The position numbers and the translations under genes were made by a program. The notes below the pieces were generated by a model, which did no database searches, was not told the origin of the DNA, and worked only from the letters and a program-made list of their open reading frames with translations. A stretch of 60,324 nt of DNA, counting the filler. It is 3 parts of 3 records of this genome, joined end to end, with 100 filler letters (N's around TTAATTAATTAA, not from the genome) between each part and the next. Parts side by side here need not be neighbours in the genome. Positions count along the whole stretch, not along the records: positions 28,620 to 44,285 come from DRR378314_199; 2 more parts are not named here. The stretch is one strand, 5' to 3'. The first letter of the stretch is position 1; each line of letters opens with the position of its first letter. This document shows positions 20,782 to 57,156 of the stretch, in pieces.

Positions 20782-20854
20782 AGCCACCACCCGGATTCGA
20801 ACCGGGGTTACTGGATTCAAAGTCCAGTGTCATAAACCCCTAGACCATGGCGGC
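20782..20854 (-). tRNA. tRNA-Gln(TTG)
   Basis: Reverse complement reads GCCGCCA TG GTCTAGGGGTTTATGAC A CTGGA CTTTGAA TCCAG TAAC CCCGG TTCGAAT CCGGG TGGTGGC T, followed by T9 (A run at 20772-20780 on +). Confidence 0.93.
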
Positions 20855-28519: not shown

Positions 28520-28619
28520 NNNNNNNNNNNNNNNNNNNNNNNNNNNNNNNNNNNNNNNNNNNNTTAATTAATTAANNNNNNNNNNNNNNNNNNNNNNNNN
28601 NNNNNNNNNNNNNNNNNNN
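28520..28619. other. Artificial contig linker N44-TTAATTAATTAA-N44
   Basis: 100-nt spacer with stops in all six frames. Composition and gene style change abruptly across it. Confidence 0.99.
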
Positions 28620-28674
28620 ACAAAATCAAAATTTTGTTGCTTTTTAGACGACCTCTTTTTTTAACCCTTTAATT

Positions 28675-29310
28675 TTGAAAAGAAAACTAAAATTACTTTT
28701 TCTACTGTCCATATCCGTATTTTTAATCATCCTTATTTTGAAAGAACTCAAAAACACCATCCCAGATAGTATTAGACCAGAGGTGGAGACTGCCCTAGGG
28801 CATTTTCCGGAACTTAAGGGCATTCCTATTGAATTCAAATTCAAAAAAAACATAAGAAAATCCGTAATGCAGGCCCAGCCGACCTGGAGCGCACTGCTAA
28901 AGCCCAAAAGCAAACGTAGCTACGTAATTCTTATCAGTGAAGAGTTCAAAATTTCCGGCGAAGAATTTAAAACGGTGGACATGCCTACAGATGTTTTGAT
29001 AGGATGGGTAGGTCACGAACTTGGGCACGTTATGGATTACCAAGAGCGGGGAAACCTGAATCTTGTAGGCTTTGGCGTTCGGTATGTGTTGTTGAAGGAG
29101 TTCGTAAAAAAAGCGGAGCGTGCTGCAGATTCCTTTGCCGTATCGCGAGGTATGTCCGAATATATTCTGAAAACAAAGCGTTTTATACTCGACCATTCGG
29201 AAATTGATGAAACCTACAAAACAAGAATAAAGCAATATTACCTATCTCCCGATGAAATTATGGAAATGGTCAAAGAGCAAGATTCCCTAAATGACAATGG
29301 ATTGTTATGA
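28675..29310 (+). CDS. Hypothetical membrane-anchored/exported zincin-like protein (HExxH)
   Basis: Hydrophobic N-terminus, GHELGH and a downstream E-R-A-A-D (ExxAD) third-ligand motif. TTG start. Confidence 0.7.
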   Translation: MKRKLKLLFLLSISVFLIILILKELKNTIPDSIRPEVETALGHFPELKGIPIEFKFKKNIRKSVMQAQPTWSALLKPKSKRSYVILISEEFKISGEEFKTVDMPTDVLIGWVGHELGHVMDYQERGNLNLVGFGVRYVLLKEFVKKAERAADSFAVSRGMSEYILKTKRFILDHSEIDETYKTRIKQYYLSPDEIMEMVKEQDSLNDNGLL

Positions 29311-30828
29311 GTTTTGGAAAACAAATGCCTCCCATTCCTTAAAACGGCCCTCTCCCATAACTCTTTCCATTTTTACCTGTCCGCCCTTTTTCTTATTGGC
29401 ACCGTTCCAATCCGCGAACATTTGCTGGGGCACAAAATTTACCTTCACCCCTTCCAAAGCTTTGCTTCGGGCAACTTTGTAATTTTTGTTGGCTTCTTTT
29501 AAGTAACTGTCCAGGACGCTGGCCGTTTTTTCTTCGTCCAAATGCTCATCGGAACCCAAATACCACGTATGGTAAAATCCGTCATCAAAACGTTTTGCAC
29601 AAAGTGTATATTCAGGAACCTTAATATTCAGTTCTTCCTCCAAATGTTTTACGGCATCATTCAATTTGTTCACCGAAAGCTGTGACCCCACGGTATTTAA
29701 AAAGAATTTGGTACGTCCCGTGATTTTTATTTCGGCTCGTTCCACATCGGTAAAGGCAATGGTATCTCCAATTATATATCGCCACGCACCGGACACCGTT
29801 GATATTATCAAAACATAATCCACATCTGCTTCAACCTCATCCAAGGTAATGGAGGGTGCATCCTCCGTTAACGAACCATCTTGATTGACATACTCAGGTT
29901 CAAAAGGCACAAACTCAAAATAGATTCCGTTGTCCGTGATAAGTTTCATCGCAGTGGTCTCTGGCCTGTTTTGACAGGCAAAAAATCCTTCGGACGCCAA
30001 ATAGGTATCTATAATTTGAATGGGGCGGCCCAATAGGGCATTGAAGCTTTTCTCGTAAGGGTCAAACGCCACTCCACCCGATGTAAAAGCCCGTAAGTTG
30101 GGCCATATCTCGTGGATATTGTCCACCTTATGATAGTCTATTACTTTCTTGAGCATCAGCTCCATCCAAGAAGGAATGCCGCTCAGGGCGCCAATATCCC
30201 AATTTTTGGCATTCTGTGCTATGGAAAGTACACGCTCGTCCCAATCATCTATTTTTGCGATTTGGTCACCGGGCTTATAGTATTTTTTGAACCAGAAAGG
30301 AATGTTACTGGCACTTATGCCGCTAATTTCACCTTCTTTTTTACCATCGCGCTCCTGCAGATTGGTAGAACTCCCCAACATCATGATTTCTTTCTCAAAA
30401 AAATCGGCGGGCATATCAAAATTGCTCATCGCAAACACCTGTTGCCTTCCAGCTCGGGTAATGGAGTCCAACATATCTCCGGTAACGGGTATTCTTTTGG
30501 GTTTTTTTCCCGTAGTACCCGAAGAAAGAGCAAAGAAATCAGGGCTTCCCGGCCAGACAACGTCAGCTTCGCCTTGAATGGTCTTGCTCCACCATTCATC
30601 GGTTATTTTTTTATAATCGTGGTAGGGTATCGCTTCGGAAAATGCCTTTTGGACATCGTTGGATTTTAAAATGGAATCAAAAACGTATTCTTTTCCAAAT
30701 TGAGTATTCTTTGCCTTGGCCAATAATGTCTCCAAGGTCTTTTTCTGCTCTTCGACCGGACTATTTTCCTTGCTCAGCGCATCCCGAGCTTCGATAACCC
30801 CTTTTATAATGTTTCCTATGATTGCCAT
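29305..30828 (-). CDS. GH3 auxin-responsive-promoter family protein (acyl-adenylate-forming)
   Basis: SSGTTGKKPK, YLASEGFF, YFEFVP, GAWRYIIGD and ITGRT motifs; 507 aa. Confidence 0.9.
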   Translation of the reverse strand: MAIIGNIIKGVIEARDALSKENSPVEEQKKTLETLLAKAKNTQFGKEYVFDSILKSNDVQKAFSEAIPYHDYKKITDEWWSKTIQGEADVVWPGSPDFFALSSGTTGKKPKRIPVTGDMLDSITRAGRQQVFAMSNFDMPADFFEKEIMMLGSSTNLQERDGKKEGEISGISASNIPFWFKKYYKPGDQIAKIDDWDERVLSIAQNAKNWDIGALSGIPSWMELMLKKVIDYHKVDNIHEIWPNLRAFTSGGVAFDPYEKSFNALLGRPIQIIDTYLASEGFFACQNRPETTAMKLITDNGIYFEFVPFEPEYVNQDGSLTEDAPSITLDEVEADVDYVLIISTVSGAWRYIIGDTIAFTDVERAEIKITGRTKFFLNTVGSQLSVNKLNDAVKHLEEELNIKVPEYTLCAKRFDDGFYHTWYLGSDEHLDEEKTASVLDSYLKEANKNYKVARSKALEGVKVNFVPQQMFADWNGANKKKGGQVKMERVMGEGRFKEWEAFVFQNS

Positions 30829-30912
30829 TTATCGGTAATTTATGTGTTTAAATTTACCCTAATAACGCAGGAAAGTTTCACTCAATCCATTTTTAGATTG
30901 ACGTAAATCATC

Positions 30913-31209
30913 TTAAGCATTTACAGCGGCCGATAAAGAAGAGGAATCGGTGAAAACATCTCTGGCAACAGGCTGTTCCAATTTGTTGGCAATTTTGGAA
31001 TAAAGAGGCTCTGGTGTATCCCGATGTATTGAAACATTGCCATTGCCAGGATCGATTTGAACAACGACCAAAGAAAGGTAATCCATAAGGTGTTCGGCTT
31101 CTTTTATGAGTATTCTAACCACCTGAAGCCGGACCGCATATTCTAAATTGATTTTGCGCTCATGGTGCAATGCCCTTTTATCCTTTAGATTTTTCCAGAT
31201 TATTTCCAA
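30913..31209 (-). CDS. Hypothetical protein
   Basis: 98-aa ORF in an AT-rich region; no family recognised. Confidence 0.55.
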   Translation of the reverse strand: MEIIWKNLKDKRALHHERKINLEYAVRLQVVRILIKEAEHLMDYLSLVVVQIDPGNGNVSIHRDTPEPLYSKIANKLEQPVARDVFTDSSSLSAAVNA

Positions 31210-31503
31210 GTCAAAATTTTCAACAAAAATAGCCCAAATAATATTTGTTTTACAATTACGTTACATTTATTTAACATTGAAAACATCTTCCTGCTTTCTT
31301 TGGCCCATCTTATTTCTTGCGAGCTAAGGACACATTATCAACCCGTTAACCCCCAAATCCATTTTTATTGGGTTTTTTTCAACACTTTAGCCGATTCACT
31401 TCTTAATGTTTTCATAAATATGGAAATCAAATAGTTCCATAGGCAAAAAATATCAAACTAACTCTTATATTTAGCCGATTGCGAATAATTTTAAAAACAA
31501 AAA

Positions 31504-31731
31504 ATGACCCACGAATTACTAGAAAAGGCGGAAGAGTTTGAAAAAAGGCCCATGAGCCACATGTCCACCAGCGATAGGGTTAAGGCCTCAAGGGAAGCAA
31601 AAAGCTTGATTCTTTCCATAAACGAGATTTATAAAAAAACCAAGGATTCCAAATTAATGGAAACCATGAAAAACATTACCGCAAAGAAGCGTAAAATAGA
31701 AAAGCGCCTCAAAGGTTCCCCTTTGGTTTAA
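31504..31731 (+). CDS. Small basic helical hypothetical protein
   Basis: 75-aa ORF with an A-rich translation-initiation region typical of Bacteroidota. Confidence 0.65.
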   Translation: MTHELLEKAEEFEKRPMSHMSTSDRVKASREAKSLILSINEIYKKTKDSKLMETMKNITAKKRKIEKRLKGSPLV

Positions 31732-32015
31732 TATACCTTTTGTGGAAGGGTATTGGTGGTTCCCAAACCAATACCCTTCCCAAAAAACTTTTGTTCCCCT
31801 TCCCAAAACCTTTCTAAATTGTTGTTTTTCAGCGAACAACTCAATTTCGCTAAGCACTCTATTACCTGAGAACAATACTTTTTCCATTTACATAACATTT
31901 ATAACCAATTATGTCTTAATTACTGCAACCAATAAAAAACTGGATTGTATTAATGGGTGTTATAGATAATTTAGAGCTATAGTTTTAACTCAACTAAATA
32001 CAAACACTCAGAAAA

Positions 32016-32117
32016 ATGAACACTATGGAAGCAAAGCTAGGGTACCTATTCTGGTACGTTGTAATTGCACTATCCGTTTACGCTCTTTTAAGCAGTATCT
32101 ACCTTTACATTAGTTAA
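32016..32117 (+). CDS. Putative 33-aa single-pass membrane protein (not in ORF track)
   Basis: MNTMEAKLGYLFWYVVIALSVYALLSSIYLYIS*, with an A-rich leader and a downstream terminator. Confidence 0.5.
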   Translation: MNTMEAKLGYLFWYVVIALSVYALLSSIYLYIS

Positions 32118-32170
32118 CTATACTAAACACTAACACAAACCCAATATAGTTAGTAATGTGTCTTTATAGG

Positions 32171-32196
32171 GGGCCCCTGATCAGGTGCCCTTTTTT
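32171..32196 (+). terminator. Intrinsic terminator, possibly bidirectional
   Basis: GGGCCCCT-GATC-AGGTGCCC hairpin (one mismatch) followed by TTTTTT, abutting the pyruvate kinase stop. Confidence 0.6.
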
Positions 32197-33733
32197 AATT
32201 CCAGTTCATTCTCGGTAACAAAACTTCTTTCTTGTAGTGATAATCCTCCACATTTATTAGTACCTCATCCAAAAAAGATATAGCTTCATTTACATGAGGT
32301 CCTTTGTTCAACATTACACATTCAGCTTGAACCGAAGAAGTAATATCGGTTATTTCAGACCTTGAGGGCATGCCCTTCTTTGCAAGACTTTCCAATACTT
32401 GAGTGGCCCAAACCACCGGTATATGGGCTGCACTGCAAAACGATAAAATCCCTTCCTGCACCATTCCCATATTTTTCCAACCCACTTCCAATGCCAGATC
32501 GCCGCGGGCAATCATAATGCCCAAATGCTTGCGCTGCATCGCAGATATTAGAATGCTTATTAAATTCCTGTACGCCAAATTGGTCTCAATTTTCAGAATA
32601 ATGCCCAATTCTTCATCTGCCCCCAATCTTTTCAATTCATACAAGAGGTCGTCAACATCATTTTCATCGTTTACATAAGAGTAATTTACGATGTCCGCAT
32701 GAGCAACCACAAACTTCAAGTCTTCCCGATCTTTGTCCGTAAGCCCAGAAATGCCCAAATCCAAGGTGGGCAGGTTGATTCCCTTTTCTCCTTTTAGTTT
32801 TGCACCGCCAACTTTGGCCCGTGTTATTTTTACCCTAAACGATTCCGAAGCCGTTTCCACAACCTCGCCCTCCATTTTGCCATCATCAAATAAAATGGGC
32901 TCTCCTTTTTTTACACGTTGAATAATTTGAGAAGGTACACAACCAATTGTCGCAGGTTTCACAACGATTCCGTTTTTATCATACTCTGGAAGGGTTGCTC
33001 CATTTTCTCTGTCGGTAACAATAAGGTGGTCCCCTTTATTAAGTGGAATAAATTGTTTTTCTTTCTTTTTTGAAGCTTTGGATCGTTTTCCTTGCACAGT
33101 GAAATCAATGCTACCTGTTCTAACCTTGGACCCTGTTAAATCCATGGCAACTTTGACAGTGGCGGAACATTCTTTAGCTGCTTTGCGCACATTGTCAATT
33201 ATGGCTTTCCAAACATCGGGACCATCATGCGCGCAATTTATTCGAGCACAGTCCATCCCGTTTTTTACCATATGCAACACCATATCGTAATTGGTGGCTG
33301 CCTCGGTGGGCTGCGTGACCATAATCCTGACCCTTCGCGATTTGGTATTGGTCCCAAAAAGTTCATCAGTATGCTTTACAAGTAATTTCGCACCATCACC
33401 AATGCTTAAAAACTCTTTCTTGGAAAGGTCTGGAGCAGCTCCCAATAAGCTGTTAACGATAATTTTGAGATTGATGATACTCCCCAAAATATTACCTTCC
33501 GAATTGGCAAGACGCGTTAAGCCCAATTGCTTTAGACCTTTTTGCATGTTTCGGGCATCAAAACTTCGGAAGGTAGCATAGTGCAATAAATTTTTTGCAC
33601 TTTCCCTATAAACCGGACATACCTCCGCAGGCAAAATACCATCAATAGCCTGTTGCCGTTGAATCAAATTTATGACTTCGTCAATCTGCAAAGCCATTTT
33701 TTGCAACTGTTGCCGTGTAATACCCATACCCAC
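32195..33733 (-). CDS. pyk: Pyruvate kinase, atypical form with N-terminal extension and no C-terminal regulatory domain
   Basis: RIMVT, GMDCARINCAH, MDLTGSKVRTG, FDDGK, KGINLP, LKIET, MIARGDL, WATQVLES, PSRSEITD and CVMLNKG. The protein ends ~35 aa after the barrel. Confidence 0.88.
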   Translation of the reverse strand: MGMGITRQQLQKMALQIDEVINLIQRQQAIDGILPAEVCPVYRESAKNLLHYATFRSFDARNMQKGLKQLGLTRLANSEGNILGSIINLKIIVNSLLGAAPDLSKKEFLSIGDGAKLLVKHTDELFGTNTKSRRVRIMVTQPTEAATNYDMVLHMVKNGMDCARINCAHDGPDVWKAIIDNVRKAAKECSATVKVAMDLTGSKVRTGSIDFTVQGKRSKASKKKEKQFIPLNKGDHLIVTDRENGATLPEYDKNGIVVKPATIGCVPSQIIQRVKKGEPILFDDGKMEGEVVETASESFRVKITRAKVGGAKLKGEKGINLPTLDLGISGLTDKDREDLKFVVAHADIVNYSYVNDENDVDDLLYELKRLGADEELGIILKIETNLAYRNLISILISAMQRKHLGIMIARGDLALEVGWKNMGMVQEGILSFCSAAHIPVVWATQVLESLAKKGMPSRSEITDITSSVQAECVMLNKGPHVNEAISFLDEVLINVEDYHYKKEVLLPRMNWN

Positions 33734-33738
33734 TATTT

Positions 33739-33786
33739 ATGACAAAGATCATAAGTAAATCGTTCAAAAAAACTGACATTGATCAG
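33739..33786. promoter_or_regulatory. Tandem Crp/Fnr-type palindromes upstream of pyk
   Basis: ATGAC-AAAG-ATCAT (33739-33752) and CTGAC-ATTG-ATCAG (33773-33786). Confidence 0.55.
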
Positions 33787-33798
33787 CGTAATGTAACA

Positions 33799-35346
33799 TT
33801 ACCAGACAGATTGCATCTTCTTGATGGATTCAATTACAATGGGAGCCTGCTTATCCTCATTTACAATAATTAAGGTATGGTAAGGGTTTGTTGGGAATAT
33901 CTGTTCTGTCATGGAAAGCATTCCTTGGTCCACAAACAATTCCATGGACGACCAATCCATTAATATTTTGAACTCTTTTACATCTCCCTCTATACCGTTT
34001 AAAGGTGCGACATGCTTTTTGGCTCCAAAATCTTCTTGAAAATCAACTTTTCCGGACAAAGTTCTATCTACAGAAAAAATCTGATTGTCAGAATCCATAG
34101 TCATTACAAACGCCTCATCCAGTTCATTTTTAAACAGTAATTTAAAATTTTTAGCGGCCGTTCTAAGCCGAATCTCTGATTGATTGAGCCCTTCTACCTG
34201 TAAGGTATCCGATGTATTGGCCGCCACCTCAACCTCATTGACCAGTGTTGAATTGGTCAAACCACTTATTTTGTCAATTGGGTAATTTGCCAAAAAGTAA
34301 TCATCCGCAACTTTGTGCAAGGATAATTTTCGGGGCACCGTCATGGCACTTCGCCATTTCTTTGTAGGCGTATCTCGGGCGTAGTCCCAGTTGCTCATCC
34401 ATCCTATAAAAATACGCTCCTCTTCCGGAACATTGTTATAGGTTACTCCTGCGTAATTATCTGTTCCGTAATCAAACCATTTAGGATTCTTTTGATCGGA
34501 AGTAAAAGTTGTACCATCAAAATCTCCCACGAAATATTGAGTCCCACTGCCACCATTTGGGGCTCCGGGGTTAATACTAATGATCAAGACCCATTTTTCC
34601 TCATTGGAACCCTCTACTTTCAAGGGAAAAAGATCCGGACATTCCCACACTCCCCCATGTGCGCCTTGCGATTTACCAAAATCGCTCAAGTATGACCAAT
34701 CCTTTAAGTTTTTGGAACTATAAAATTTGGCATGGTCACCGGCTACCAAGATCAAAATCCAACTGTCAGACGGCTCATGCCAAAATACTTTGGGATCCCT
34801 AAAATCCTTGATGCCATCGTTAAGAATCACAGGGTTGTTCTTATACTTTTTCCAAGTGTCGCCATTGTCCAAACTATAGGCTATCCCCTGAGTTTGAAAA
34901 TCCTTCCTTCCAGCCTTCTCCCCTTCCATGGAATGGTATGTGAAAATGGCCACCAAAGGTGTTTTCCCATTTGCACCAAAACCCGAGGTGTTTTTCTTAT
35001 CCACTACTGCACTCCCGGAAAAAATATAGCCGTGCTCATCAGGGTAAAGTGCAATGGGCCTGTGCTTCCAATGCACCAAGTCCTCACTTACAGCGTGTCC
35101 CCAATGCATGGGGCCCCATACAATATCCTCCGGGTAATATTGGTAAAAAAGATGGTAAACCCCTTGGTTAAAGACCAACCCATTAGGGTCGTTCATCCAT
35201 TTTTCCTTTGGTGAAAAGTGGAATTGCGGACGATACTCCTCCTTGTACCATGATTCCTCTTTCGGTTGATTCGGCACTTCTTCCCTTTTTTCCTTACAAG
35301 AAACAAGTGCAGCCATCACTATGCAACTGATAATTAGTCTAAACAT
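33799..35346 (-). CDS. GH32 beta-fructosidase/levanase, lipoprotein
   Basis: WMNDPNG, WGHAVS, FSGS, RDPKV and WECPD catalytic motifs; lipobox LVSC. Confidence 0.93.
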   Translation of the reverse strand: MFRLIISCIVMAALVSCKEKREEVPNQPKEESWYKEEYRPQFHFSPKEKWMNDPNGLVFNQGVYHLFYQYYPEDIVWGPMHWGHAVSEDLVHWKHRPIALYPDEHGYIFSGSAVVDKKNTSGFGANGKTPLVAIFTYHSMEGEKAGRKDFQTQGIAYSLDNGDTWKKYKNNPVILNDGIKDFRDPKVFWHEPSDSWILILVAGDHAKFYSSKNLKDWSYLSDFGKSQGAHGGVWECPDLFPLKVEGSNEEKWVLIISINPGAPNGGSGTQYFVGDFDGTTFTSDQKNPKWFDYGTDNYAGVTYNNVPEEERIFIGWMSNWDYARDTPTKKWRSAMTVPRKLSLHKVADDYFLANYPIDKISGLTNSTLVNEVEVAANTSDTLQVEGLNQSEIRLRTAAKNFKLLFKNELDEAFVMTMDSDNQIFSVDRTLSGKVDFQEDFGAKKHVAPLNGIEGDVKEFKILMDWSSMELFVDQGMLSMTEQIFPTNPYHTLIIVNEDKQAPIVIESIKKMQSVW

Positions 35347-35550
35347 TACCTTAAGTTAAAATAATCTTTTTCAAGATAAAGAAATTTTATCTCCCACCTT
35401 ACATGCTTCTGAAAACCAAGAAATAATCACTTTGAATGGCAACCAAGGCTACATTCAAAAAAATAATTCCCACATGCTTGAAAGGAATGAAACCAAAAAT
35501 CTACCTATCTTTAAACAACGTTTTGCAAACCCCAACTAAATCTAAATAAG

Positions 35551-36165
35551 TTGAGCAAAAACCTACTTTTAATCCTTACCCGAAACCCCGAACTCGGTAA
35601 ATGCAAGACCCGGTTGGCCGACAAAGTAGGCGACAAATCCGCTTTGGACATCTATAAGTTTTTGCTGGACCACACCGTATCCTTTACCAAAGATCTTAAG
35701 GTTGAAAAATGGGTGTATTATTCCGAAAGCATTTGGGAAAATGACATTTGGGACAACAATGTTTACCAAAAAAAACTTCAGGTAGGAAAGGATTTGGGTG
35801 AACGTATGATGAACGCCTTTAGGGAAGGATTCCAAGCCGGTTTTGAAAATATCATCGTTATTGGTAGCGATATGTTCCACCTAAACCAATCCGATTTGGA
35901 AGAGGCTTTCTCAAAATTTAAAGACCACAACTATGTTGTGGGTCCCGCTGAAGATGGTGGCTACTATCTTTTGGGGATGAAATCCATAAAAACTGAACTG
36001 TTCCAAAATAAAAACTGGGGCACAGATACCGTTCTACAGGATACACTTTCCGATATCAAAAACGAAAAAGTGGCACTAATGGATGAGAAAAATGATGTGG
36101 ATTACTACAAAGACATAAAAGATGTAAAGGCCTTTGCACCATTTTTAAAACATATACAAGAATGA
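35551..36165 (+). CDS. TIGR04282/DUF2064 family transferase (arsenosugar-associated, CofC-like fold)
   Basis: RNPELGKCKTRL, QVGKDLGERM, IGSD, GPAEDGGYYLLG, WGT and DVD motifs. TTG start. Confidence 0.88.
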   Translation: MSKNLLLILTRNPELGKCKTRLADKVGDKSALDIYKFLLDHTVSFTKDLKVEKWVYYSESIWENDIWDNNVYQKKLQVGKDLGERMMNAFREGFQAGFENIIVIGSDMFHLNQSDLEEAFSKFKDHNYVVGPAEDGGYYLLGMKSIKTELFQNKNWGTDTVLQDTLSDIKNEKVALMDEKNDVDYYKDIKDVKAFAPFLKHIQE

Positions 36166-36977
36166 CACAAAAACAGATTGGCGAATCCGTTGAATATTTA
36201 AAAAAGCAAGGTTTTGAAACCCCAGAAATCGGCATTGTGCTCGGCACGGGCCTGGGACAACTTGTGGACAAAATAGAAAATTCCATTGAAGCCCATTACA
36301 ACCACATCCCCTATTTTCCTTTGGCTACTGTGGAATTCCATACCGGCAAATTGATTTATGGGACAATCGAAGGCAAAAAAGCCGTGGTAATGCAAGGGCG
36401 TTTTCATCTGTACGAAGGCTATGATTTTCTCGACATCACCTATCCCATACGGGTTATGCATCAGCTCGGCATAAAAAAACTGTTTGTTTCCAATGCCGCG
36501 GGAGCCATCAACCTCGACTTTAAAAAAGGGGATATTATGTTGATCGAAGATCACATCAACCTTCAAGGAGGTTCTCCCTTAGCTTTTAAAAATGTAGGAG
36601 AGTTTGGCGACCGATTTGTTGATATGAGCGAACCCTACGACCTGGACATGCGCAAAAAATTGGAAGCCATTGCGTTAAGAGAGAATATATCACTTAAAAA
36701 AGGAGTCTATGTTTCGGTAGTTGGCCCCCAACTCGAAACCAAGGCCGAATATAGAATGCTCAAAATTATGGGCGCCGATGCTGTAGGAATGAGTACGGTT
36801 CCCGAAGTAATTGTTGCAAATCATTTACGACTACCCATTGTAGCGGTATCCGTGTTGACCGATGAATGTGATCCAGATAATCTAGAACCCGTTGATGTTC
36901 AGGAGATTATAAAAAAAGCAAAGCAAACGGAGCCAAAAATGATCAAGCTGTTTCAAGAATTAATCAAAGAACTATGA
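36162..36977 (+). CDS. Purine nucleoside phosphorylase, trimeric PNP family
   Basis: IVLGTGLG, QGRFHLYEG, NAAG, DHIN, GPQLETKAE and DAVGMSTVPE. ATGA overlaps with both neighbours. Confidence 0.93.
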   Translation: MTQKQIGESVEYLKKQGFETPEIGIVLGTGLGQLVDKIENSIEAHYNHIPYFPLATVEFHTGKLIYGTIEGKKAVVMQGRFHLYEGYDFLDITYPIRVMHQLGIKKLFVSNAAGAINLDFKKGDIMLIEDHINLQGGSPLAFKNVGEFGDRFVDMSEPYDLDMRKKLEAIALRENISLKKGVYVSVVGPQLETKAEYRMLKIMGADAVGMSTVPEVIVANHLRLPIVAVSVLTDECDPDNLEPVDVQEIIKKAKQTEPKMIKLFQELIKEL

Positions 36978-37939
36978 GCTATTTAGATGCCACCCAAGAC
37001 CTCTATAAAGAGGCCGCCCTAACCCCAGATGTTGGGCTTTGCTGTACCACCAACCCCATTTGGCAATTTCCCGGGCTTTCCATTCCCAAGATTATGCAAG
37101 AAATGAACTATGGCTGTGGCAGCACCGTTTCCGCACAGGATTTGGTGAACAATCCCAAAGTACTTTATGTAGGTGTAGGTGGCGGAATGGAACTGCTTCA
37201 ATTCTCCTATTTTTCCAGACAACAAGGAGGTGTAACAGGAGTGGATTCCGTAGATGAAATGTTGGAGGCTTCCAGAAAAAACTTCAAAATTGCCGAACAA
37301 GAAAACGATTGGTTCAAAAGTGAGTATGTGAACTTGGTCAAAGGTGATGCATTACATCTACCAGTAGAAGATGAAAGTATTGATGTCGCGGCACAAAATT
37401 GCCTCTTCAATATTTTTAAAATAGAGGATTTGAAGAAAGCGGTTTCCGAAATGTACCGTGTTTTAAAGCCGCACGGCAGATTGGTAATGAGCGACCCCAT
37501 TTGCGAGCAGCCTATGAGTGATGAACTCCGTAATGATGATAGACTGAGAGCGCAATGCCTGAGCGGCAGTATTCCGTTGAACGATTATGTAAAAGTGTTG
37601 ACGGATGCTGGCTTTGGCACCATCGAAATTCGCGGGAAACGATCGTACAGGGTATTATCCCCCAACCATTACCCTACCAATGAACTCATCCATATCGAAT
37701 CTATTGAAATTGCAGCTATCAAAGACCCAATGCCAGAGGATGGACCTTGTGTTTTTACAGGTAAAACAGCCATCTATTTTGGCAACGAAGATTATTTTGA
37801 TGACAAAAAAGGACACATGCTACAACAAAACCAACCCCTAGCAGTTTGTGATAAAACAGCAGCAGCCTTGGCAAATGCTTCGAATGAAATTTACATTAGC
37901 GAAAGTACCTACCACTATAATGGTGGCGGATGTTGTTAG
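36974..37939 (+). CDS. arsM: Arsenite S-adenosylmethionine methyltransferase, ArsM-like (arsenosugar-cluster type)
   Basis: Class I SAM fold (YVGVGGG, GVD, GDA, RVLKPHG). ArsM-type cysteines in GLCC, YGCG, NCLFNI and QCLSG, plus C-terminal GGCC. Confidence 0.85.
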   Translation: MSYLDATQDLYKEAALTPDVGLCCTTNPIWQFPGLSIPKIMQEMNYGCGSTVSAQDLVNNPKVLYVGVGGGMELLQFSYFSRQQGGVTGVDSVDEMLEASRKNFKIAEQENDWFKSEYVNLVKGDALHLPVEDESIDVAAQNCLFNIFKIEDLKKAVSEMYRVLKPHGRLVMSDPICEQPMSDELRNDDRLRAQCLSGSIPLNDYVKVLTDAGFGTIEIRGKRSYRVLSPNHYPTNELIHIESIEIAAIKDPMPEDGPCVFTGKTAIYFGNEDYFDDKKGHMLQQNQPLAVCDKTAAALANASNEIYISESTYHYNGGGCC

Positions 37940-37944
37940 GTGAT

Positions 37945-38961
37945 TTATTTAGAAATTGTAGTCTTGGAAGATTCGTAGTCCAACAGAATTCCTTCGGAGA
38001 TCCACTTGGCCAAAGCCTGTCGGTTATCCGGATCTAAAATTCTGCGCTGGTCCTTTTTGTTTCTGATATTGCCGATTTCGATATAGGCCATGGCAGGAAA
38101 CGTATTTTTAACCATGTACAAACTGCTTCGCTCCATAAAAGTACCGTTGTACAATCGGTTGGGCTGAAACTTTTTGTATTTCCTAAAAAATGTCCGGTGA
38201 ATGCTCTCTGCCAGTTTTTTGCCGTTTTTGCTCTTTTCGTGATGGTAGAAAAACACATCGATATTGGTTCCCTCGCTACGGCTGTCCACGTGAGTGACCA
38301 GTAAACGTTGATATTTCCCAGAATTCTTCAGATACAAATCATTTACAGCTTTGGAGCGCTGCTTCAATCGCTCCAACTGACTCAACGGAATAGTATTGGA
38401 CTGCACGGTCTCATCCGTGTCCAATTCCAGCAACCTACTGTCTCGGATTCCATCATTTTCATCCTGAACAATCAAATGTACCTCCGCACCATGTGATACC
38501 AACTCACGGGCCAGCCTAAGGGTTACATCATAAGCATATTCATCTTCAGAAATCAATTTTCCGCGGTACTTTTCCACAGCGCCCGGGTCTGGACCACCGT
38601 GCCCTGAGATTAAATAGTAGACTGTTTTGTCCAAGCGTTTGCTCACGACATCCACCTTTTTAAAATCTTCTCCAAAAATGGGATAGGTAATTCCTTGATC
38701 AATCTCCTCTACTTTTTTGGTTGCCAAAGTATCCGGCAATACATAGGAACGTCCCATAAACAACGATTCATCCTCGCCCAAATCCTCTGCGTTCAACGAT
38801 ACAAATTTATTATAATGTTTTGTTGGGCTCACTCCGTGCCTTCTGAGCAAGGAATAGATACCATCCCCTTCTTGGGCAATAACTTTTGGAAATTCCTCTT
38901 GGGCACAGATTGCACCTTGAAGTAAAATGCTGAGTAAAACGGTAAACTGAAAAGATTTCAT
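37945..38961 (-). CDS. N-acetylmuramoyl-L-alanine amidase (Amidase_3) with LysM-like N-terminal domain
   Basis: Signal peptide from MKSFQF (38961). Zn/catalytic motifs GHGGPDPGA, EDEYAYD, HVD and YIEIGN. Confidence 0.88.
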   Translation of the reverse strand: MKSFQFTVLLSILLQGAICAQEEFPKVIAQEGDGIYSLLRRHGVSPTKHYNKFVSLNAEDLGEDESLFMGRSYVLPDTLATKKVEEIDQGITYPIFGEDFKKVDVVSKRLDKTVYYLISGHGGPDPGAVEKYRGKLISEDEYAYDVTLRLARELVSHGAEVHLIVQDENDGIRDSRLLELDTDETVQSNTIPLSQLERLKQRSKAVNDLYLKNSGKYQRLLVTHVDSRSEGTNIDVFFYHHEKSKNGKKLAESIHRTFFRKYKKFQPNRLYNGTFMERSSLYMVKNTFPAMAYIEIGNIRNKKDQRRILDPDNRQALAKWISEGILLDYESSKTTISK

Positions 38962-38962
38962 T

Positions 38963-39892
38963 TTAATTCTCAAATTCCAGATCAACATAATCATTAATAA
39001 TGCCATTGCTGATCAAGTTGGCAAATTCTTTTTTGTTGGGTTTGAGGGAAATCTTGCTGTCCGATATACTGGAACCGCTTTCAATAGTAAGCAAGCTAAT
39101 GGCCGGCAGCATGTTTCTGGCCAAATACAGACTGTTCTGATCTTCGAAAATCAAGCTGGCTTCATTGGAAGATTTGCTGGAAATACTTTTTTCCTTAAAA
39201 ACATTTTGAAGGTTTTGTGCAAAACGCTGCCCTTGGGTGCTTTTGTTATAGTGATAAACGGCCACATTCAAATTGCCTGAGTTTACAATGTTTTCAGTAC
39301 GGATGAACAATACCCGTTGGTATTTACCCGTGTTCTGCAAGTAACGTTTGTTAACGACCTTTATGTAATCTCCCAACACATCTTTTGTGAATATATCTCC
39401 CCCCAAGTCCGTGGCAATCTCATCACCCATCACATACACTTGGGCTCCGTTCACCATTAGCTCCGCTGCCAATCGTTGGGTGATATCCTTTATAAAGTCT
39501 TTATCTCCTTCGGTACTGTTTTCGGTAATCAAGTAGTAGACAGCATCCTTGAGTTTATTACTTTTTAGCGACATTTGGGCAAGTTCCTTATCAAAAATGG
39601 GTTCCTCCGCATCTTTCTTGGCCTCGACCATCACTCCGGTCTTCTTAAAGGAATCATCAGCATAGGGAACATTATATGCCTCACCTAGTTTTAGCGCGCT
39701 TCCTTTTTTTATCTTGTCCGAATTGAGTTCCAAAAATTCTCCATAGTGTTTAGCAGGATCCAATCCTTGTTTGCGGAGCAGGGAAAAAATACCGTCTCCT
39801 TGTTCTGCAACCACCTTGTAGTAAGTGCTTTCCTGTGCAAAAATGAACGTACAGGCCCAAACCCAAAAAAGAAGGGATAATCGTGATTTCAT
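38963..39892 (-). CDS. Catalytically degenerate amidase paralogue
   Basis: Collinear with the adjacent amidase (VVAEQGDGIFSLLRK, PIF, VYYLI, KYQR, SLY..N..PA), but Zn-ligand motifs are missing. Confidence 0.75.
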   Translation of the reverse strand: MKSRLSLLFWVWACTFIFAQESTYYKVVAEQGDGIFSLLRKQGLDPAKHYGEFLELNSDKIKKGSALKLGEAYNVPYADDSFKKTGVMVEAKKDAEEPIFDKELAQMSLKSNKLKDAVYYLITENSTEGDKDFIKDITQRLAAELMVNGAQVYVMGDEIATDLGGDIFTKDVLGDYIKVVNKRYLQNTGKYQRVLFIRTENIVNSGNLNVAVYHYNKSTQGQRFAQNLQNVFKEKSISSKSSNEASLIFEDQNSLYLARNMLPAISLLTIESGSSISDSKISLKPNKKEFANLISNGIINDYVDLEFEN

Positions 39893-39987
39893 TATTGTAT
39901 GTCTTTGGGTGGGATGTGTTGCAAATATGGCAAAAAAACACGTAGCTCGGTTACGAATTAGCCCAAAATTTCGGACAAATTAATTTA

Positions 39988-41007
39988 TTAATCCTGAAGA
40001 CTGGATTGCTTTACATTTGCAAACTGTCTTCGGATTACAGATTCGGCAGGTTTGTTTTGGGGCGTAAAGCGGTTGTCCTCGTGCCCCCCTACCTGATCGT
40101 GCTGCATAAACCACTTCCAAACAAAGCCGCCCGCAAACCAATCCTCATTCCAAAATTCATCAAAGATTACCTGCGTGGCGTCGGCTTGGGCCTGAAGATT
40201 AACATTCATTTGGTTTCGGTCGACCAACCAAGGTTTTTTGCCGGCAAAGTCCATACTTCGGTACCCAAACTCCGTAAAAAGAATAGGTTTATCTTCTTGT
40301 TTGGATAGTTCCCTCATTTCAGTTTTCCAAGGTTGCCATCCCTCGGTAAGTGTTTGAATGGTTGGATTTTCTTTTTCGCACAATGGGAAGTAGGCGTTCA
40401 CCCCAATATAATCCAATTGCGACCAAAACGGTGTTTTGGCATATTCATCCCAGTTGGCAGCATAGGTAAGTTCACCGTGGTACACCTTTTTTACTTTTTG
40501 GATAAGGCTGTTCCAAAACTCAGGTCGCTCGTTTACGAAGGTTTTCAACTCCGTTCCAATACAAAACATATCGCTCTGGGTTTCCTCGGCCAGTGCTGCA
40601 TATAGTAGTATAAATTGTTCGTACGCTACTTCCAGTTGCTTCCAATCCTTTTCCGTTGGCATCTTCATGTTTCCTGTAAACTCACCTCTATGGATCCAGA
40701 TTTGGGGCTTTACCATCACGCTCACCCCATTTTGATGCATTTTTTGGATGTATTGCCTGGCTCCTTCCCTTCTCTCCCCATACCATTGGTGGTCCGAATC
40801 AAAAACCAATTCGGGCGAATCCAAATCGCGGATAAAGCCAAAAGGCATAATGGCCGCATAATTGGCCTGAATATCCAGAACAGGGGTAATATGATGTTGA
40901 GCCACTTCTTCCCGGGACGAGACAAAACTGACACCATTGACTTTGGCTAACTTGCCACTACCGCAAGAGGCAAAAATAAAGACCCATAATAGAACTACTT
41001 TCTTCAT
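39988..41007 (-). CDS. GH113-like TIM-barrel glycoside hydrolase, lipoprotein
   Basis: Lipobox FASC; KPQIW, GTEL (acid/base), TYAANWD, AYFPL, TEFGY (nucleophile) and GGFVWKW. Confidence 0.8.
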   Translation of the reverse strand: MKKVVLLWVFIFASCGSGKLAKVNGVSFVSSREEVAQHHITPVLDIQANYAAIMPFGFIRDLDSPELVFDSDHQWYGERREGARQYIQKMHQNGVSVMVKPQIWIHRGEFTGNMKMPTEKDWKQLEVAYEQFILLYAALAEETQSDMFCIGTELKTFVNERPEFWNSLIQKVKKVYHGELTYAANWDEYAKTPFWSQLDYIGVNAYFPLCEKENPTIQTLTEGWQPWKTEMRELSKQEDKPILFTEFGYRSMDFAGKKPWLVDRNQMNVNLQAQADATQVIFDEFWNEDWFAGGFVWKWFMQHDQVGGHEDNRFTPQNKPAESVIRRQFANVKQSSLQD

Positions 41008-41135
41008 AATAATTGTGGAACCCTCTAAAATAATAATTTTAAAGCATCATTTAGCTGCCAAATTCTTATTAAATTCCATTTCACTGTTAAGTTCTTTCCA
41101 TAAAACTCGACATATAAAACAATCAAAGCCAACCC

Positions 41136-42485
41136 ATGGAACATATTGTCATCATTGGAAATGGAATAGCCGGAATTACCGCTGCTAGGCATATCCGGAA
41201 ACTTTCCGATAAAAAAATCACCGTTGTTTCGGTCGAAAGCAAGTATTTCTTTTCAAGAACCGCTTTAATGTACGTGTACATGGGGCACATGAAATTTGAG
41301 CATACTCAACCCTACGAAAACCACTTTTGGAAGAAAAACAGAATTGAATTGGTAGAGGGCTATGTTTCGCATGTAAATACTCAAGAAAAAATTATTCAAA
41401 TTGATGGAGCACCAGACCTTAATTATGACAAACTCGTTATAGCTACGGGGTCCAAACCCAATAAATTTGGATGGCCCGGTCAAGATTTAGATGGGGTCCA
41501 AGGACTCTACTCCAAACAAGACTTGGAACTTTTAGAAGAAAACGCCCCCAACAATAAGGTCTGCAAACGCGCTGTAATTGTGGGCGGCGGTTTAATCGGC
41601 ATCGAATTGGCCGAAATGCTTCGCACTCGCAACATTCCTGTTACTTTTTTGGTTCGAGAGGACAGTTTTTGGAACGGCGTCTTACCCAAAGGCGAATCAG
41701 AAATGATCAACGAACATATTCGGGAACACCATATTGACCTGCGTTTGGGTGCTTCGCTCAAAGAAATCAACTCAGATGAACACGGAAAAGTAAAATCCGT
41801 GACGCTTGCCGAAACGGGTGAACAAATTGAATGTAATCTGGTGGGCTTGACGGCTGGCGTTACTCCAAATATTGATTTCCTCAAAGATTCGGGCATTGAA
41901 TTGGGCCGTGGTGTTAAAGTAAATCGATTTTTGGAGACCAATGTTAAAGATGTTTTTGCTATCGGTGATTGTGCCGAGCAGCATGAAGCCATTGGGAATC
42001 GCAGACCTATTGAAGCCGTATGGTACACAGGCCGGATGATGGGAGAAACCCTTGCCCAGACCATTTGTGACAACCGAATGGAATACAAACCCGGACACTG
42101 GTTTAACTCAGCCAAATTTCTGGATATCGAATACCAAACCTATGGTTGGGTATTTTCAGAAAAAAGAAAAAAAGAAACGGAAACCCATTTTCATTGGCGA
42201 CATCCCAAACAAAAAATCTGTATCACCCTAGCGTTTGATAAAGATTCCGAAACACTCTTGGGCATCAATACCTTTGGCATTCGTTTACGACACGAGGTTT
42301 TTGACCGTTGGCTCAACGAAAAAAGAAATGTCGATTATGTAATGGAGCATCTCGTAGATGCCAATTTTGACCCTGAATTTTATAAAAATTTTGAAGCGCA
42401 GATCGTATCCAAATACAATTCCGATTTTGGAAAATCCATCAAACTGAAAAAGAAAAACCTAAAACGCATCTTCCAATTGGGTTGA
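41136..42485 (+). CDS. NAD(P)/FAD-dependent oxidoreductase (ferredoxin/rubredoxin reductase-like)
   Basis: GNGIAG FAD motif, ATGS, GGGLIGIE NAD motif and FAIGDCA. Confidence 0.9.
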   Translation: MEHIVIIGNGIAGITAARHIRKLSDKKITVVSVESKYFFSRTALMYVYMGHMKFEHTQPYENHFWKKNRIELVEGYVSHVNTQEKIIQIDGAPDLNYDKLVIATGSKPNKFGWPGQDLDGVQGLYSKQDLELLEENAPNNKVCKRAVIVGGGLIGIELAEMLRTRNIPVTFLVREDSFWNGVLPKGESEMINEHIREHHIDLRLGASLKEINSDEHGKVKSVTLAETGEQIECNLVGLTAGVTPNIDFLKDSGIELGRGVKVNRFLETNVKDVFAIGDCAEQHEAIGNRRPIEAVWYTGRMMGETLAQTICDNRMEYKPGHWFNSAKFLDIEYQTYGWVFSEKRKKETETHFHWRHPKQKICITLAFDKDSETLLGINTFGIRLRHEVFDRWLNEKRNVDYVMEHLVDANFDPEFYKNFEAQIVSKYNSDFGKSIKLKKKNLKRIFQLG

Positions 42486-42537
42486 TTAGTTTACGTTTTA
42501 ATAAAAAGTTTAAATCAGAACAAAGGAACAACAAACA

Positions 42538-44148
42538 ATGAACAACCAAACACATAGTCCAAGTATGGCCCTAACCGGGGAACCACCAAAAAGTTTGAGC
42601 ATCGGTCAAAAAATCGCTGTGTTTTTAGGAATGTCCGGTCTTGGCATTCTATTATTGGCCGTTTTCAATGTCGGTTTTCCAAACAAAGTTTTGTGGCTGA
42701 CCCTATCATTATCAATCATTGCCATTGGCGTTGTTTGGTTTTCCTGGGGTGCCTATTCGAGCAAACTTCCAGGTATAAAAAACGATGGGGTTTGGTTTAA
42801 ATCCATTTCCAGCCGCGGTTTATGGGGCTGGATGGCAGGTCTTGCACTCACAGGCTTTTACATTGTGCTCTACTTTTATCCTGAATATCTAGGTTTGGTC
42901 AGCGATGGAGATAACAAAGGAGTAATCGGCCTTTTTGATCCCCTTAGCATATTCTTGAACGGCAATCCAGCAAGCCAGTGGTTTGTTTACGGCACGCTCT
43001 ATACCGTGGCCATTTTGATTTTTGGCATCAAGTTCCTTTGGAAATACCGTCATAATCGATACGAAAAACTGCGCACATGGAGCGTGATGTTCTTTCAAAC
43101 CGCTTTTGCGTTCATCATTCCAGAACTGATGGCCCGTTTGAACGGTCACAAGATTTTGGACGGTGGTAGCCTCCCTTATTTTGATCTGAAAAATATTTGG
43201 CCGCTCAACTATTATAATTTTGAGGGGTACCGTATCAAAATGTTCTTAACCTCCGGGGAAATTGGGTTTGCACTATTGATTTTTGCCATTCTTTCCATTT
43301 TTGTGATAACTCCCATACTCACATACAAATACGGTAAAAGATGGTATTGTTCTTGGGTTTGCGGTTGTGGTGGACTTGCCGAAACCGCTGGTGATTCGTT
43401 TAGGCAATTGAGTGATAAATCTACCAAAGCATGGAAAATTGAGCGTTGGGTGGTGCATAGCGTGGTAGTTTTTGTGACCTTGATGACCACAGCGGTCATC
43501 TATTCCTATTTGGGGACTGATACCAGCAAATACTGGCTGACGAAAAGCTCTTTTTTGATCGGCGTAGGCGTTTTGTTGACCTTAGTGTTTGCTTGGGTGA
43601 TGATTTTTAAAAGAAATCAGCTTCAAAAAGATGCACAATACGGAGCCATCGGATATTTTGTGATTATAATTGCGTTGATCGGATTCCACTTTTTTAGTGG
43701 TGAAGGAGAAGTTTTTCTCTTCAAATCTGGAACGCTTCGTAAATCGTACTCTTTTTTGATTGGCAGTATTTTCTCTGGAGTCATCGGAACCGGGTTCTAT
43801 CCCATATTTGGTAGCAGGGTTTGGTGCAGATTCGGTTGTCCTATGGCTGCTATCCTAGGTTTTCAACAGAAATTGTTTTCCAGATTTAGAATAACCACCA
43901 ACGGCGGACAATGCATTTCTTGCGGAAACTGCTCAACGTACTGCGAAATGGGCATTGATGTGCGTGCCTACGCGCAAAAAGGTGAAAACATCGTAAGGTC
44001 CAGTTGCGTCGGTTGCGGTATCTGCTCAGCAGTCTGCCCTAGAGGTGTCCTTAAATTGGAAAATGGACCTTTGGAAGGTAGAATTGACAGCAATCAGGTG
44101 CTTTTGGGCAATGATGTGGATTTGATGACCCTCGTAAACAAGAAGTAA
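42538..44148 (+). CDS. Polytopic membrane 4Fe-4S protein (NapH/MauN/RdxA-like)
   Basis: Many TM helices, CSWVCGCG and CRFGCP motifs, and ferredoxin motifs CISCGNCSTYC and CVGCGICSAVCP. Confidence 0.88.
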   Translation: MNNQTHSPSMALTGEPPKSLSIGQKIAVFLGMSGLGILLLAVFNVGFPNKVLWLTLSLSIIAIGVVWFSWGAYSSKLPGIKNDGVWFKSISSRGLWGWMAGLALTGFYIVLYFYPEYLGLVSDGDNKGVIGLFDPLSIFLNGNPASQWFVYGTLYTVAILIFGIKFLWKYRHNRYEKLRTWSVMFFQTAFAFIIPELMARLNGHKILDGGSLPYFDLKNIWPLNYYNFEGYRIKMFLTSGEIGFALLIFAILSIFVITPILTYKYGKRWYCSWVCGCGGLAETAGDSFRQLSDKSTKAWKIERWVVHSVVVFVTLMTTAVIYSYLGTDTSKYWLTKSSFLIGVGVLLTLVFAWVMIFKRNQLQKDAQYGAIGYFVIIIALIGFHFFSGEGEVFLFKSGTLRKSYSFLIGSIFSGVIGTGFYPIFGSRVWCRFGCPMAAILGFQQKLFSRFRITTNGGQCISCGNCSTYCEMGIDVRAYAQKGENIVRSSCVGCGICSAVCPRGVLKLENGPLEGRIDSNQVLLGNDVDLMTLVNKK

Positions 44149-44285
44149 ATCACTTTTCTTTTTGAACAATTCAAGGTAGAATCCATGGAAAATTTTAGTT
44201 TTGGCAACTTAAACATTAACTAAAACCTGTTGTGCATTTTGAAGGCTTCATGTATCAAAAGCCGTCAATTCGAGTGAAATTCCAA

Positions 44286-44385
44286 NNNNNNNNNNNNNNN
44301 NNNNNNNNNNNNNNNNNNNNNNNNNNNNNTTAATTAATTAANNNNNNNNNNNNNNNNNNNNNNNNNNNNNNNNNNNNNNNNNNNN
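44286..44385. other. Artificial contig linker N44-TTAATTAATTAA-N44
   Basis: Identical to the first linker; GC rises sharply after it. Confidence 0.99.
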
Positions 44386-44413
44386 CGCGGTTCGAGTCCG
44401 TGTGGGGGCACCA
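44386..44413 (+). tRNA. 3' fragment of a bacterial tRNA (T arm, acceptor strand, CCA), probably tRNA-Thr
   Basis: CGCGG-TTCGAGT-CCGTG TGGGGGC A CCA. The anticodon is absent, so the isotype rests on recalled resemblance to alphaproteobacterial tRNA-Thr. Confidence 0.7.
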
Positions 44414-44818
44414 TTTCATTACCCTAAATCGTCCAAAGACATCGAAAACCCTGTGTTATATGGGTTTTATCGAGATCGTTTGTCCGATTCTGTCCAGCTG
44501 CAAACGATACAACACCCCCGGATTGGGGGTGTTTGTGAGGGTATCGGGTTTGAACCGGAACAAGTCCCTTCCCCAGCAATGCCGTTCTCAGACATTCAAC
44601 CCCGCAACCTTAAGCCGCGCGAAAAAGCCTATAAACGCTGCGCAAGATCGAAGCAAAGGGCACCTACGAAACGGCCCATCGCCTGCGCGCCTGCATCGGG
44701 TCCGTCTTTCGCTATACAGTTGCCCGCAGCATCGCCGATGGTCCGGCGCCAGCGCCTAACTCAATCAACTATCACTCGTGAAGCCTCTCAATAGCTAGAT
44801 CACTTGACCTACCATTTC

Positions 44819-44841
44819 GATTGTATACAAATTGTGTACAT
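44819..44841. promoter_or_regulatory. Putative GntR operator
   Basis: Perfect palindrome TTGTATACAA (44821-44830) and an adjacent degenerate copy TTGTGTACAT, just upstream of the GntR RBS (GGAG). Confidence 0.65.
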
Positions 44842-44855
44842 TACTGGAGAACATG

Positions 44856-49474: not shown

Positions 49475-49475
49475 G

Positions 49476-50807: not shown

Positions 50808-51371
50808 TTTGAAAAGGTCACTTCGCCGCGCTAATCCTCGGATTGACCGCCTATGGCATTGGGCACTTCAGATTTACGCCTCCACCTTCTTGCAATCTGC
50901 ACCCGGGCGTCCCGCCGGTGTTTCATCCGTCAGATAAATGCTCGTTTAGGTGTCGGCGTATAAACATCCAACCCATTGACGGATATCCTGTGTGGCGGCG
51001 GCATTCGCAAGGACTTCCCCCGCCTCCCGGAAGCGGACATTCACGCCAGCCGCAGCATCGAATAACTTGGAATCGTAGCGGTCATTCCCTGCGTGATGTA
51101 TGAATGGCCGGTCTCGGATAATCCGCCATCTGCTGCGCTTTCATTTTGAATGCGCGAAATTCAGATTCCAAATTTGGGTATAAAAGTAAGATTTAGGGTT
51201 ACAACTGTGCGTAGATATATATTCCTCCCTTAATATATCGTCTCAAAACAAATAATTAGATGCTCAACGTGGAGATCTGCGGGCCATTCACATCGCCAAG
51301 TGCCCATATGTTCAAGCAAATCAAACAGTTCGCGTTGTGCGGCGCAGCTATCTTTACTTTCTGAACCTTTC

Positions 51372-56151: not shown

Positions 56152-56169
56152 CTTTTCCCCCGAAAACAC

Positions 56170-56200: not shown

Positions 56201-56218
56201 TTTTACGCTCTGTCGCGA

Positions 56219-57139: not shown

Positions 57140-57156
57140 CATAAACTCCCGGTTTT

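Follow-up and report, generated by a model that had tools for sequence, protein, structure and literature searches.

A purine nucleoside phosphorylase (PNP) encoded in a 60,324-nt stretch of DNA (the window) is a candidate for the adenine-removal step of arsenosugar synthesis. The gene (36162-36977, plus strand) lies between genes for a TIGR04282 protein and the arsenite methyltransferase ArsM, and its 271-aa product is a PNP-I family phosphorylase (NF006054, PF01048) of a subclass with Asp234, Leu191 and Val246 in the active site. In our judgment it is an evenly balanced prediction that the enzyme removes adenine in its operon from DDMAA (5'-deoxy-5'-dimethylarsinoyl-adenosine), which ArsS produces. 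Because Asp, Val and Leu replace the base-selecting Asn, the 5'-OH-binding His and the ribose-packing Phe, respectively, the PNP-I fold with its intact phosphate site would be expected to accept adenine nucleosides and to tolerate a non-hydroxyl group at the 5' position. The steps after ArsS appear to be without assigned enzymes, and a phosphorylase kept in the cluster is a concrete candidate for one of them.

Family and fold

The protein scores above the cut-offs of the PNP profiles NF006054 (345.1 versus 218), TIGR01697 (300.7 versus 197.1) and PF01048 (178.5 versus 25.1). It also exceeds the cut-off of the equivalog model TIGR01700, described as "inosine and guanosine-specific" (307.4 versus 293.35), and stays below that of TIGR01694 (104.2 versus 274.85), the model for methylthioadenosine phosphorylase (MTAP). 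NCBIfam release 20 includes arsenosugar-dedicated models for ArsS, ArsM, TIGR04282, TIGR04283 and TIGR04169; of that release, only the generic models for PNP and MTAP match the window PNP.

The best sequence match in the PDB is 4lna (294 bits), and 4m1e scores 261 bits. An AlphaFold2 model built from a 13-sequence alignment has a predicted local distance difference test (pLDDT) score of 92.9, and its Foldseek template modelling (TM) scores to 4LNA, 4M1E, 8SWT, 8SWU and human PNP are 0.94-0.96 (0.95 for 4lna and 0.96 for human PNP). The closest solved relatives are the structural-genomics PNPs of Spirosoma linguale (4LNA) and Planctomyces limnophilus (4M1E), which share with the window PNP the TD.C.PD motif, the aliphatic residue and GPxLET, at TM 0.95-0.96. 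Our literature search found no functional study of either protein; 4m1e has been used as a modelling template (PMC10900210). The Bacteroides fragilis PNP (8SWT), also from Bacteroidota, has Asp at the same position. Unlike the window PNP it keeps the His and the Phe (gptfet), and it therefore belongs to an Asp/His rather than the Asp/aliphatic subclass.

The active site

Four motifs locate the active-site residues: RFHLYEG starts at residue 80, GPQLET at 188, SVLTDEC at 230 and LEPVDVQEII at 241. The phosphate site, which in human PNP consists of Ser33, His64, Arg84, His86, Ala116 and Ser220, is kept in the alignment as Thr29, His60, Arg80, His82, Ala112 and Ser211. His82 (codon 36405-36407), the equivalent of human His86, reaches 90% conservation or more in each of the two groups of relatives. 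The ribose contacts Tyr84, Met210 and Phe152 and the base contacts Glu192 and Thr233 are also kept. Phe152 aligns with human Phe159, the Phe that comes from the neighbouring subunit in homotrimeric PNPs.

The nucleoside side differs from that of human PNP at three positions: Asn243 is replaced by a natural Asp234 (GAT, 36861-36863), His257 by Val246 (GTT, 36897-36899) and Phe200 by Leu191, whose codon occupies 36732-36737 together with that of the retained Glu192 (human Glu201); all codons are on the plus strand. The loop is also 2 residues shorter. Human His257 contacts the ribose 5'-OH. The residues of TIGR01700-type specificity are thus lacking, with Asp234 for Asn and Val246 for His. A first-pass annotation of the gene had reported the Asp and Val replacements and the retention of the His86 and Glu201 equivalents, all of which hold; it did not include the change to Leu. 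HMMER places T-D of the window protein over T-N of the human chain 4ear, an H257W mutant, and Val246 over the mutated His257, with a 2-residue gap right after TDEC. Val246 likewise falls over the His of the Clostridium perfringens PNP 8swu, in an alignment free of gaps. Assignments in the 234-246 loop come from pairwise alignments and may shift by one residue in distant sequences.

According to PMC5074518, Asn at the human-243 position sets specificity for 6-oxopurines, and the trimeric K. lactis PNP with the N256D change and its Glu kept uses adenosine > inosine > xanthosine > guanosine. This agrees with the earlier statement that an Asn-to-Asp change permits adenosine. The human double mutant E201Q:N243D cleaves adenosine prodrugs, as PMC2799393 reports. 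Human PNP, with its N243D, E201Q:N243D and H257 mutants, and the K. lactis N256D enzyme are among the nearest known counterparts of the window PNP, which resembles them in fold and phosphate-site residues; its natural Asp234 mirrors the engineered switch to adenosine activity.

Co-variation was analysed in the 137 cluster representatives in which positions 191 and 234 could both be aligned. When His is at position 246, Tyr or Phe is found at 191 in 44 of 48 Asn/His proteins and in all 8 Asp/His proteins; when 246 is aliphatic, Leu is found at 191 in 19 of 21 proteins of the Asp/aliphatic type and in 17 of 25 of the Asn/aliphatic type. Since positions 191 and 246 co-vary, the His-to-aliphatic and Phe-to-Leu changes are one coupled ribose-side switch. 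On these alignments the choice between Asn and Asp is a second, separate switch. Belliella kenyensis (L066) carries tandem PNP genes at 585-1379 and 1742-2515, one Asp/Ile and the other Asn/Val; therefore, the two switches can coexist as paralogues.

Distribution of the active site

A search of 1.84 billion representatives returned 11,879 relatives at E <= 0.001. When the best 150 and the query were aligned, 138 could be read at position 234, with Asn in 103 and Asp in 33, and 22 of the Asp proteins carry I, L, V or M at 246. Genomes were scanned with 13 Asp-type seeds, and the best 80 of at least 602 matches (the 80 loci) were analysed. Asp234 is invariant across 13 diverse relatives (alignment A1). 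Of the 80 loci, 79 carry Asp234 and have at position 246 I (55), L (12), V (10) or F (2); L072, which alone departs from this, is Asn/His. The taxa include Bacteroidota, Ignavibacteriota, Chlorobiota, Omnitrophota, Gemmatimonadota, Calditrichota, Balneolota, Planctomycetota and Fibrobacterota. By sequence comparison, the Asp/aliphatic signature is real and ancient, neither due to chance nor private to the window gene. A large clade with the Asp/Leu/aliphatic site, spanning Bacteroidota and at least 10 other phyla or candidate divisions, passes an "inosine and guanosine-specific" model without the residue that defines this specificity.

Gene context in the window

The window is a composite of three pieces that differ in GC content and taxonomy, with N runs at 28520-28619 and 44286-44385; it is therefore a join of separate sequences and not one locus. 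Only the 15.7-kb middle piece (28620-44285), which is Bacteroidota-like with about 41% GC, was taken as context for the PNP gene. The upstream gene (35551-36165, plus strand) encodes the TIGR04282 protein (210.5 bits versus a cut-off of 134), which also matches Pfam DUF2064 and CofC and has a CofC-like nucleotidyltransferase fold. In the PDB it comes closest to 3cgx, which is described as a 'putative nucleotide-diphospho-sugar transferase'. The downstream gene (36974-37939, plus strand) encodes an arsenosugar-type ArsM (NF038099, 569.3 bits versus a cut-off of 400). The TGA stop of the TIGR04282 gene overlaps the PNP start by 4 nt (ATGA), and the ATG of arsM overlaps the PNP stop likewise by 4 nt (ATGA). 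The PNP gene thus adjoins, on the same strand, two genes of an arsenosugar cluster.

Gene context in relatives

Neighbours within 10 kb of the 80 loci were identified by tblastn with the window proteins, and 1,141 open reading frames (ORFs) were clustered and their representatives scanned against NCBIfam and Pfam. By tblastn, TIGR04282 is present at 29 of the 80 loci and ArsM at 21, one of them partial. Other recurrent neighbours are ArsS (TIGR04167; 23 loci), the peroxidase-like TIGR04169 (21), DUF547 (20), the rhodanese NF045521 (16) and the family 2 glycosyltransferase (GT2) TIGR04283 (16). In Flavobacteriaceae the typical order on one strand is TIGR04169-ArsS-rhodanese-TIGR04282-PNP-ArsM-(fatty-acid hydroxylase)-DUF547-TIGR04283, with the PNP gene in mid-operon; the Kordia jejudonensis locus L003 is an example of a full cluster. 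In Chitinophagales the linkage is kept in other orders: ArsS>PNP>TIGR04282 at L032, PNP>TIGR04169>ArsS at L033 and a divergent arrangement at L037.

A maximum-likelihood tree groups the window with all 31 arsenic-context loci in a single clade of 43 rows, which has a Shimodaira-Hasegawa-like approximate likelihood ratio test (SH-aLRT) value of 99; for two of these loci (L042 and L051) the arsenic context was assigned by tblastn alone. No arsenic context is seen in the 39 rows that lie outside the clade. The 43 rows differ from the 37 other Asp-type rows only at positions 13, 17, 237 and 240; at the last two the window protein has Asp237 and Asn240.

Phosphorylases of a second family

A tblastn search of a plasmid collection with a flavobacterial ArsS matched 54 records, 49 of them from Burkholderia, and six regions were examined. 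Four of the six, from Acinetobacter, B. thailandensis, B. glumae and Cupriavidus, have an MTAP-family gene inside the cluster. In Acinetobacter portensis one strand carries arsS, a TVP38/FAD oxidoreductase, DUF547, TIGR04283, TIGR04282, an ArsM-like methyltransferase and a phosphate transporter, and mtnP is next on the opposite strand. In B. thailandensis and B. glumae, MTAP-TIGR04283-TIGR04282-FAD oxidoreductase form one operon near arsS. In Cupriavidus sp. KK10 (L086) TIGR04283, TIGR04282 and MTAP are consecutive; this MTAP copy was identified by tblastn only. The MTAP gene thus adjoins TIGR04282 or TIGR04283 in all three Burkholderiaceae regions. The Acinetobacter copy and the two Burkholderia copies score 310-315 bits with TIGR01694 (cut-off 274.85), and RefSeq labels the proteobacterial copies as the methionine-salvage enzyme MtnP. 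Near the 80 PNP loci no MTAP-family gene was found at E <= 1e-20.

The window PNP belongs to the same superfamily as MTAP/MtnP, as a distant homologue, and occupies the same slot beside TIGR04282/TIGR04283. Unlike the MTAPs, with which identity is about 25%, it keeps Glu192 where they have Ser. In BLASTP alignments to two cluster MTAPs, Asp234 lies over the first Asp of TDYD/TDFD, Val246 over Val or Ala and GPQLET over GPAFST; the second Asp of TD[YF]D falls on Glu235 across a 1-residue gap. The arsenosugar link is strengthened by the conserved operons of the relatives and by the MTAP-family phosphorylases in proteobacterial ArsS clusters. Two phosphorylase families in one cluster slot would be hard to explain unless a phosphorylase acts on a 5'-substituted adenosine in the pathway.

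Proposed route

In the proposed route ArsM would make dimethylarsenite, and ArsS would join to it the 5'-deoxyadenosyl group of S-adenosylmethionine (SAM), giving DDMAA. Incorporation of this group into the ArsS product, with no release, is described in PMC13598754 and bioRxiv 10.64898/2026.04.29.721666. The PNP would convert DDMAA and phosphate to adenine and 5-deoxy-5-dimethylarsinoyl-alpha-D-ribose 1-phosphate. The CofC-like TIGR04282 protein would then join the arseno-ribose 1-phosphate to a nucleotide to form a nucleoside diphosphate sugar, and TIGR04283, of the inverting GT2 family, would transfer the arseno-sugar to give a beta-riboside. The stereochemistry would fit the route, since PNPs yield alpha-ribose 1-phosphate, GT2 enzymes are inverting and arsenosugars have the beta-riboside form.

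That the pathway as a whole is phosphorolytic and proceeds through a nucleotide sugar, with a PNP-type phosphorylase in Bacteroidota, an MTAP-type one in Proteobacteria and TIGR04282 and TIGR04283 downstream, is a tentative proposal to which we give somewhat less than an even chance. If true, it would fill the steps after ArsS and mean that two phosphorylase families were recruited to one slot. A phosphorylase step would also explain the company of a nucleotidyltransferase-like protein and a GT2 enzyme. A proposed "adenosyl nucleosidase" is relayed by a review (PMC10456119). Our literature search found no paper that proposes a phosphorylase in the arsenosugar pathway; Xue 2019 and Cheng 2021 were outside its reach, and a prior mention there is possible.

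Alternative explanations

A number of observations weigh against a role of the PNP in arsenosugar synthesis, and some of them suit a general PNP with broad activity on adenosine and inosine, beside which arsenic genes were inserted in an ancestor of the Bacteroidota clade. We regard this alternative as unlikely, though a serious contender. The Asp/Leu/aliphatic site is found in all 37 Asp-type rows beyond the arsenic-linked clade and therefore did not evolve for DDMAA; the first-pass suggestion that the site was rewired for an arsenic context is not supported. Twelve of the 37, mainly Sphingobacteriaceae, have an LpxK-PNP-porin context and 17 a YggS-(ProC)-DivIVA-PNP-IleS context, so that at least 29 lie in identified housekeeping contexts. 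The closest relatives, L001 (83% identity) and L002 (79%), have reduced clusters with no ArsS within 10 kb. The gene is kept with no arsenic genes within 10 kb at, for example, L028, L029, L044 and L017, the last in a Formosa genome that is complete; the PNP probably has a general role too. Since the arsenic-linked PNPs form one clade, they are compatible with a single origin of the linkage and may stem from one such event. The score above the TIGR01700 cut-off points the same way, and Asp alone does not exclude 6-oxopurines, because the Asp-type 8SWT was crystallised with the hypoxanthine analogue Immucillin-H; our literature search found no paper on B. fragilis PNP and Immucillin. Profile scans of 28620-44285 found no radical-SAM gene and no ArsS, TIGR04169, rhodanese, DUF547 or TIGR04283, so that of the ArsM/radical-SAM context claimed earlier only the adjacent ArsM stands. 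TIGR04282 and TIGR04283 owe their 'arsenosugar' names to gene association, and TIGR04282 is typed hypoth_equivalog. In the ArsS plasmid regions of Hymenobacter and Pseudanabaena no phosphorylase lies within 10 kb, and no arsenosugar chemistry of Flavobacteriaceae was found in the literature searched. However, a general PNP with arsenic genes inserted beside it does not account for a gene that sits in mid-operon and overlaps each neighbour by 4 nt, for a linkage that outlasts rearrangement in Chitinophagales, or for a different family, MTAP, in the same clusters of three proteobacterial genera. The PNP may work in the arsenic pathway and in general adenine-nucleoside turnover alike.

The adjacent SAM-using ArsM, and in relatives also the radical-SAM enzyme ArsS, would supply work for an enzyme that clears by-products, namely 5'-deoxyadenosine from abortive ArsS turnover or 5'-methylthioadenosine (MTA), rather than a pathway intermediate. 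The MTAP-like residues and the MtnP label of the proteobacterial counterparts agree with this. It is nevertheless improbable, given that ArsS keeps the 5'-deoxyadenosyl group in its product, as far as the sources cited above for ArsS describe it, and that the tightest and most persistent neighbour of the PNP gene is TIGR04282, not ArsS. Very improbable, in our estimate, is an arsenate reductase acting by arsenolysis, in which ribose-1-arsenate would be formed and reduced by thiols to arsenite that feeds ArsM. The PNP gene does adjoin that of ArsM, but the Asp, Val and Leu changes and the pairing with TIGR04282 would be left unexplained, and relatives' clusters already contain a protein of the rhodanese fold, which some arsenate reductases have. 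Arsenate reduction by mammalian PNP has been reported in vitro (Gregus and Nemeti 2002 and Radabaugh 2002, as cited in PMC12608789); the same review calls the relevance in vivo unknown. The first-pass annotation had named DDMAA, 5'-deoxyadenosine and MTA together as possible substrates; adenine removal from DDMAA remains the reading we prefer.

Accessory genes and further observations

No arsenic-clade-specific change of the active site was identified: positions 13, 17, 237 and 240, which separate the arsenic-linked clade from the other Asp-type rows, are not known to be catalytic, and the catalytic ones are conserved in both. A scan of 16 long representatives for fusion proteins found none that joins PNP to ArsM or TIGR04282. 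The fusions seen are DeoB-PNP (P0077) and PNP-DeoC (P0032, P0043), both with Asn/His PNPs, and, in P0129 and P0006, a fusion with a (5-formylfuran-3-yl)methyl phosphate synthase-like domain and one of an Asp/His PNP with a DeoD/uridine-phosphorylase-like domain. The YggS/DivIVA-PNP-IleS context (L039, L040, L045, L046, L058, L060-L062, L065, L069, L071, L073 and L075-L079) is conserved and cell-division-linked; its taxa are seven named phyla, candidate division FCPU426 and one unclassified bin, with Omnitrophota, Ignavibacteriota, Chlorobiota, Gemmatimonadota, Calditrichota and Balneolota among them.

Some neighbours of the window PNP recur at related loci. A GH113-like gene (39988-41007, minus strand; Pfam GH113) belongs to a family that adjoins the cluster at 15 of the 80 loci. 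A gene pair at 41136-44148 (plus strand; NCBIfam and Pfam profiles) encodes a pyridine-nucleotide-disulfide oxidoreductase and a NapH-like membrane ferredoxin. These families occur at 12 and 8 of the 80 loci, respectively, all arsenosugar-context, and the pair could be accessory redox genes. A pyridine-nucleotide-disulfide/FAD oxidoreductase is also found beside the clusters of L002, L007, L008, L011, L023-L025, L034 and L082-L085. In Flavobacteriaceae it is paired with the NapH-like ferredoxin and two GT2 genes; the versions in Proteobacteria and in Pseudanabaena are fused to, or lie next to, a TVP38 protein or TIGR04282. This oxidoreductase may be a pathway reductase. DUF547 accompanies ArsS/TIGR04283 clusters both in Bacteroidota and on plasmids of Acinetobacter, Burkholderia, Cupriavidus and Hymenobacter (L001-L025, L034; L081, L083-L086), and looks like a conserved component of these clusters. 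The Burkholderia clusters L084 (13068-14459) and L085 (13063-14460) have a second radical-SAM gene beside DUF547, with a weak match to TrsS (109.5 bits versus a cut-off of 490).

The complete gene order of the middle piece comprises four blocks. The first, on the minus strand, encodes a glycoside hydrolase family 3 (GH3) protein with a weak OlsH match, a pyruvate-kinase-like protein and a GH32 protein. The second, on the plus strand, is TIGR04282, PNP and ArsM. The third, on the minus strand, contains an Amidase_3 match, a gene without a family match and GH113, and the last, on the plus strand, is the oxidoreductase and NapH-like ferredoxin pair. The pyruvate-kinase-like gene (32195-33733) matches NF011314 in two stretches with 569.8 bits, below the cut-off of 642, and encodes an atypical long-form pyruvate kinase.

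Each join of the window (28520-28619 and 44286-44385) consists of two 44-base N runs with 12 bases between them. The first piece (1-28519) has 51-60% GC and is ORF-poor: with translation table 11 the longest ORF is 509 aa and the next 261 aa. The 496-aa and 261-aa ORFs of this piece have no NCBIfam or Pfam match. Alternative genetic codes were considered and rejected, as reading TGA as sense made the ORFs only modestly longer. The third piece (44386-60324) has 51-59% GC and carries FnrL, choline ABC transporter and RTX-repeat genes. Two tRNA genes are present in the first piece, at 8596-8668 on the plus strand and at 20782-20854 on the minus strand.

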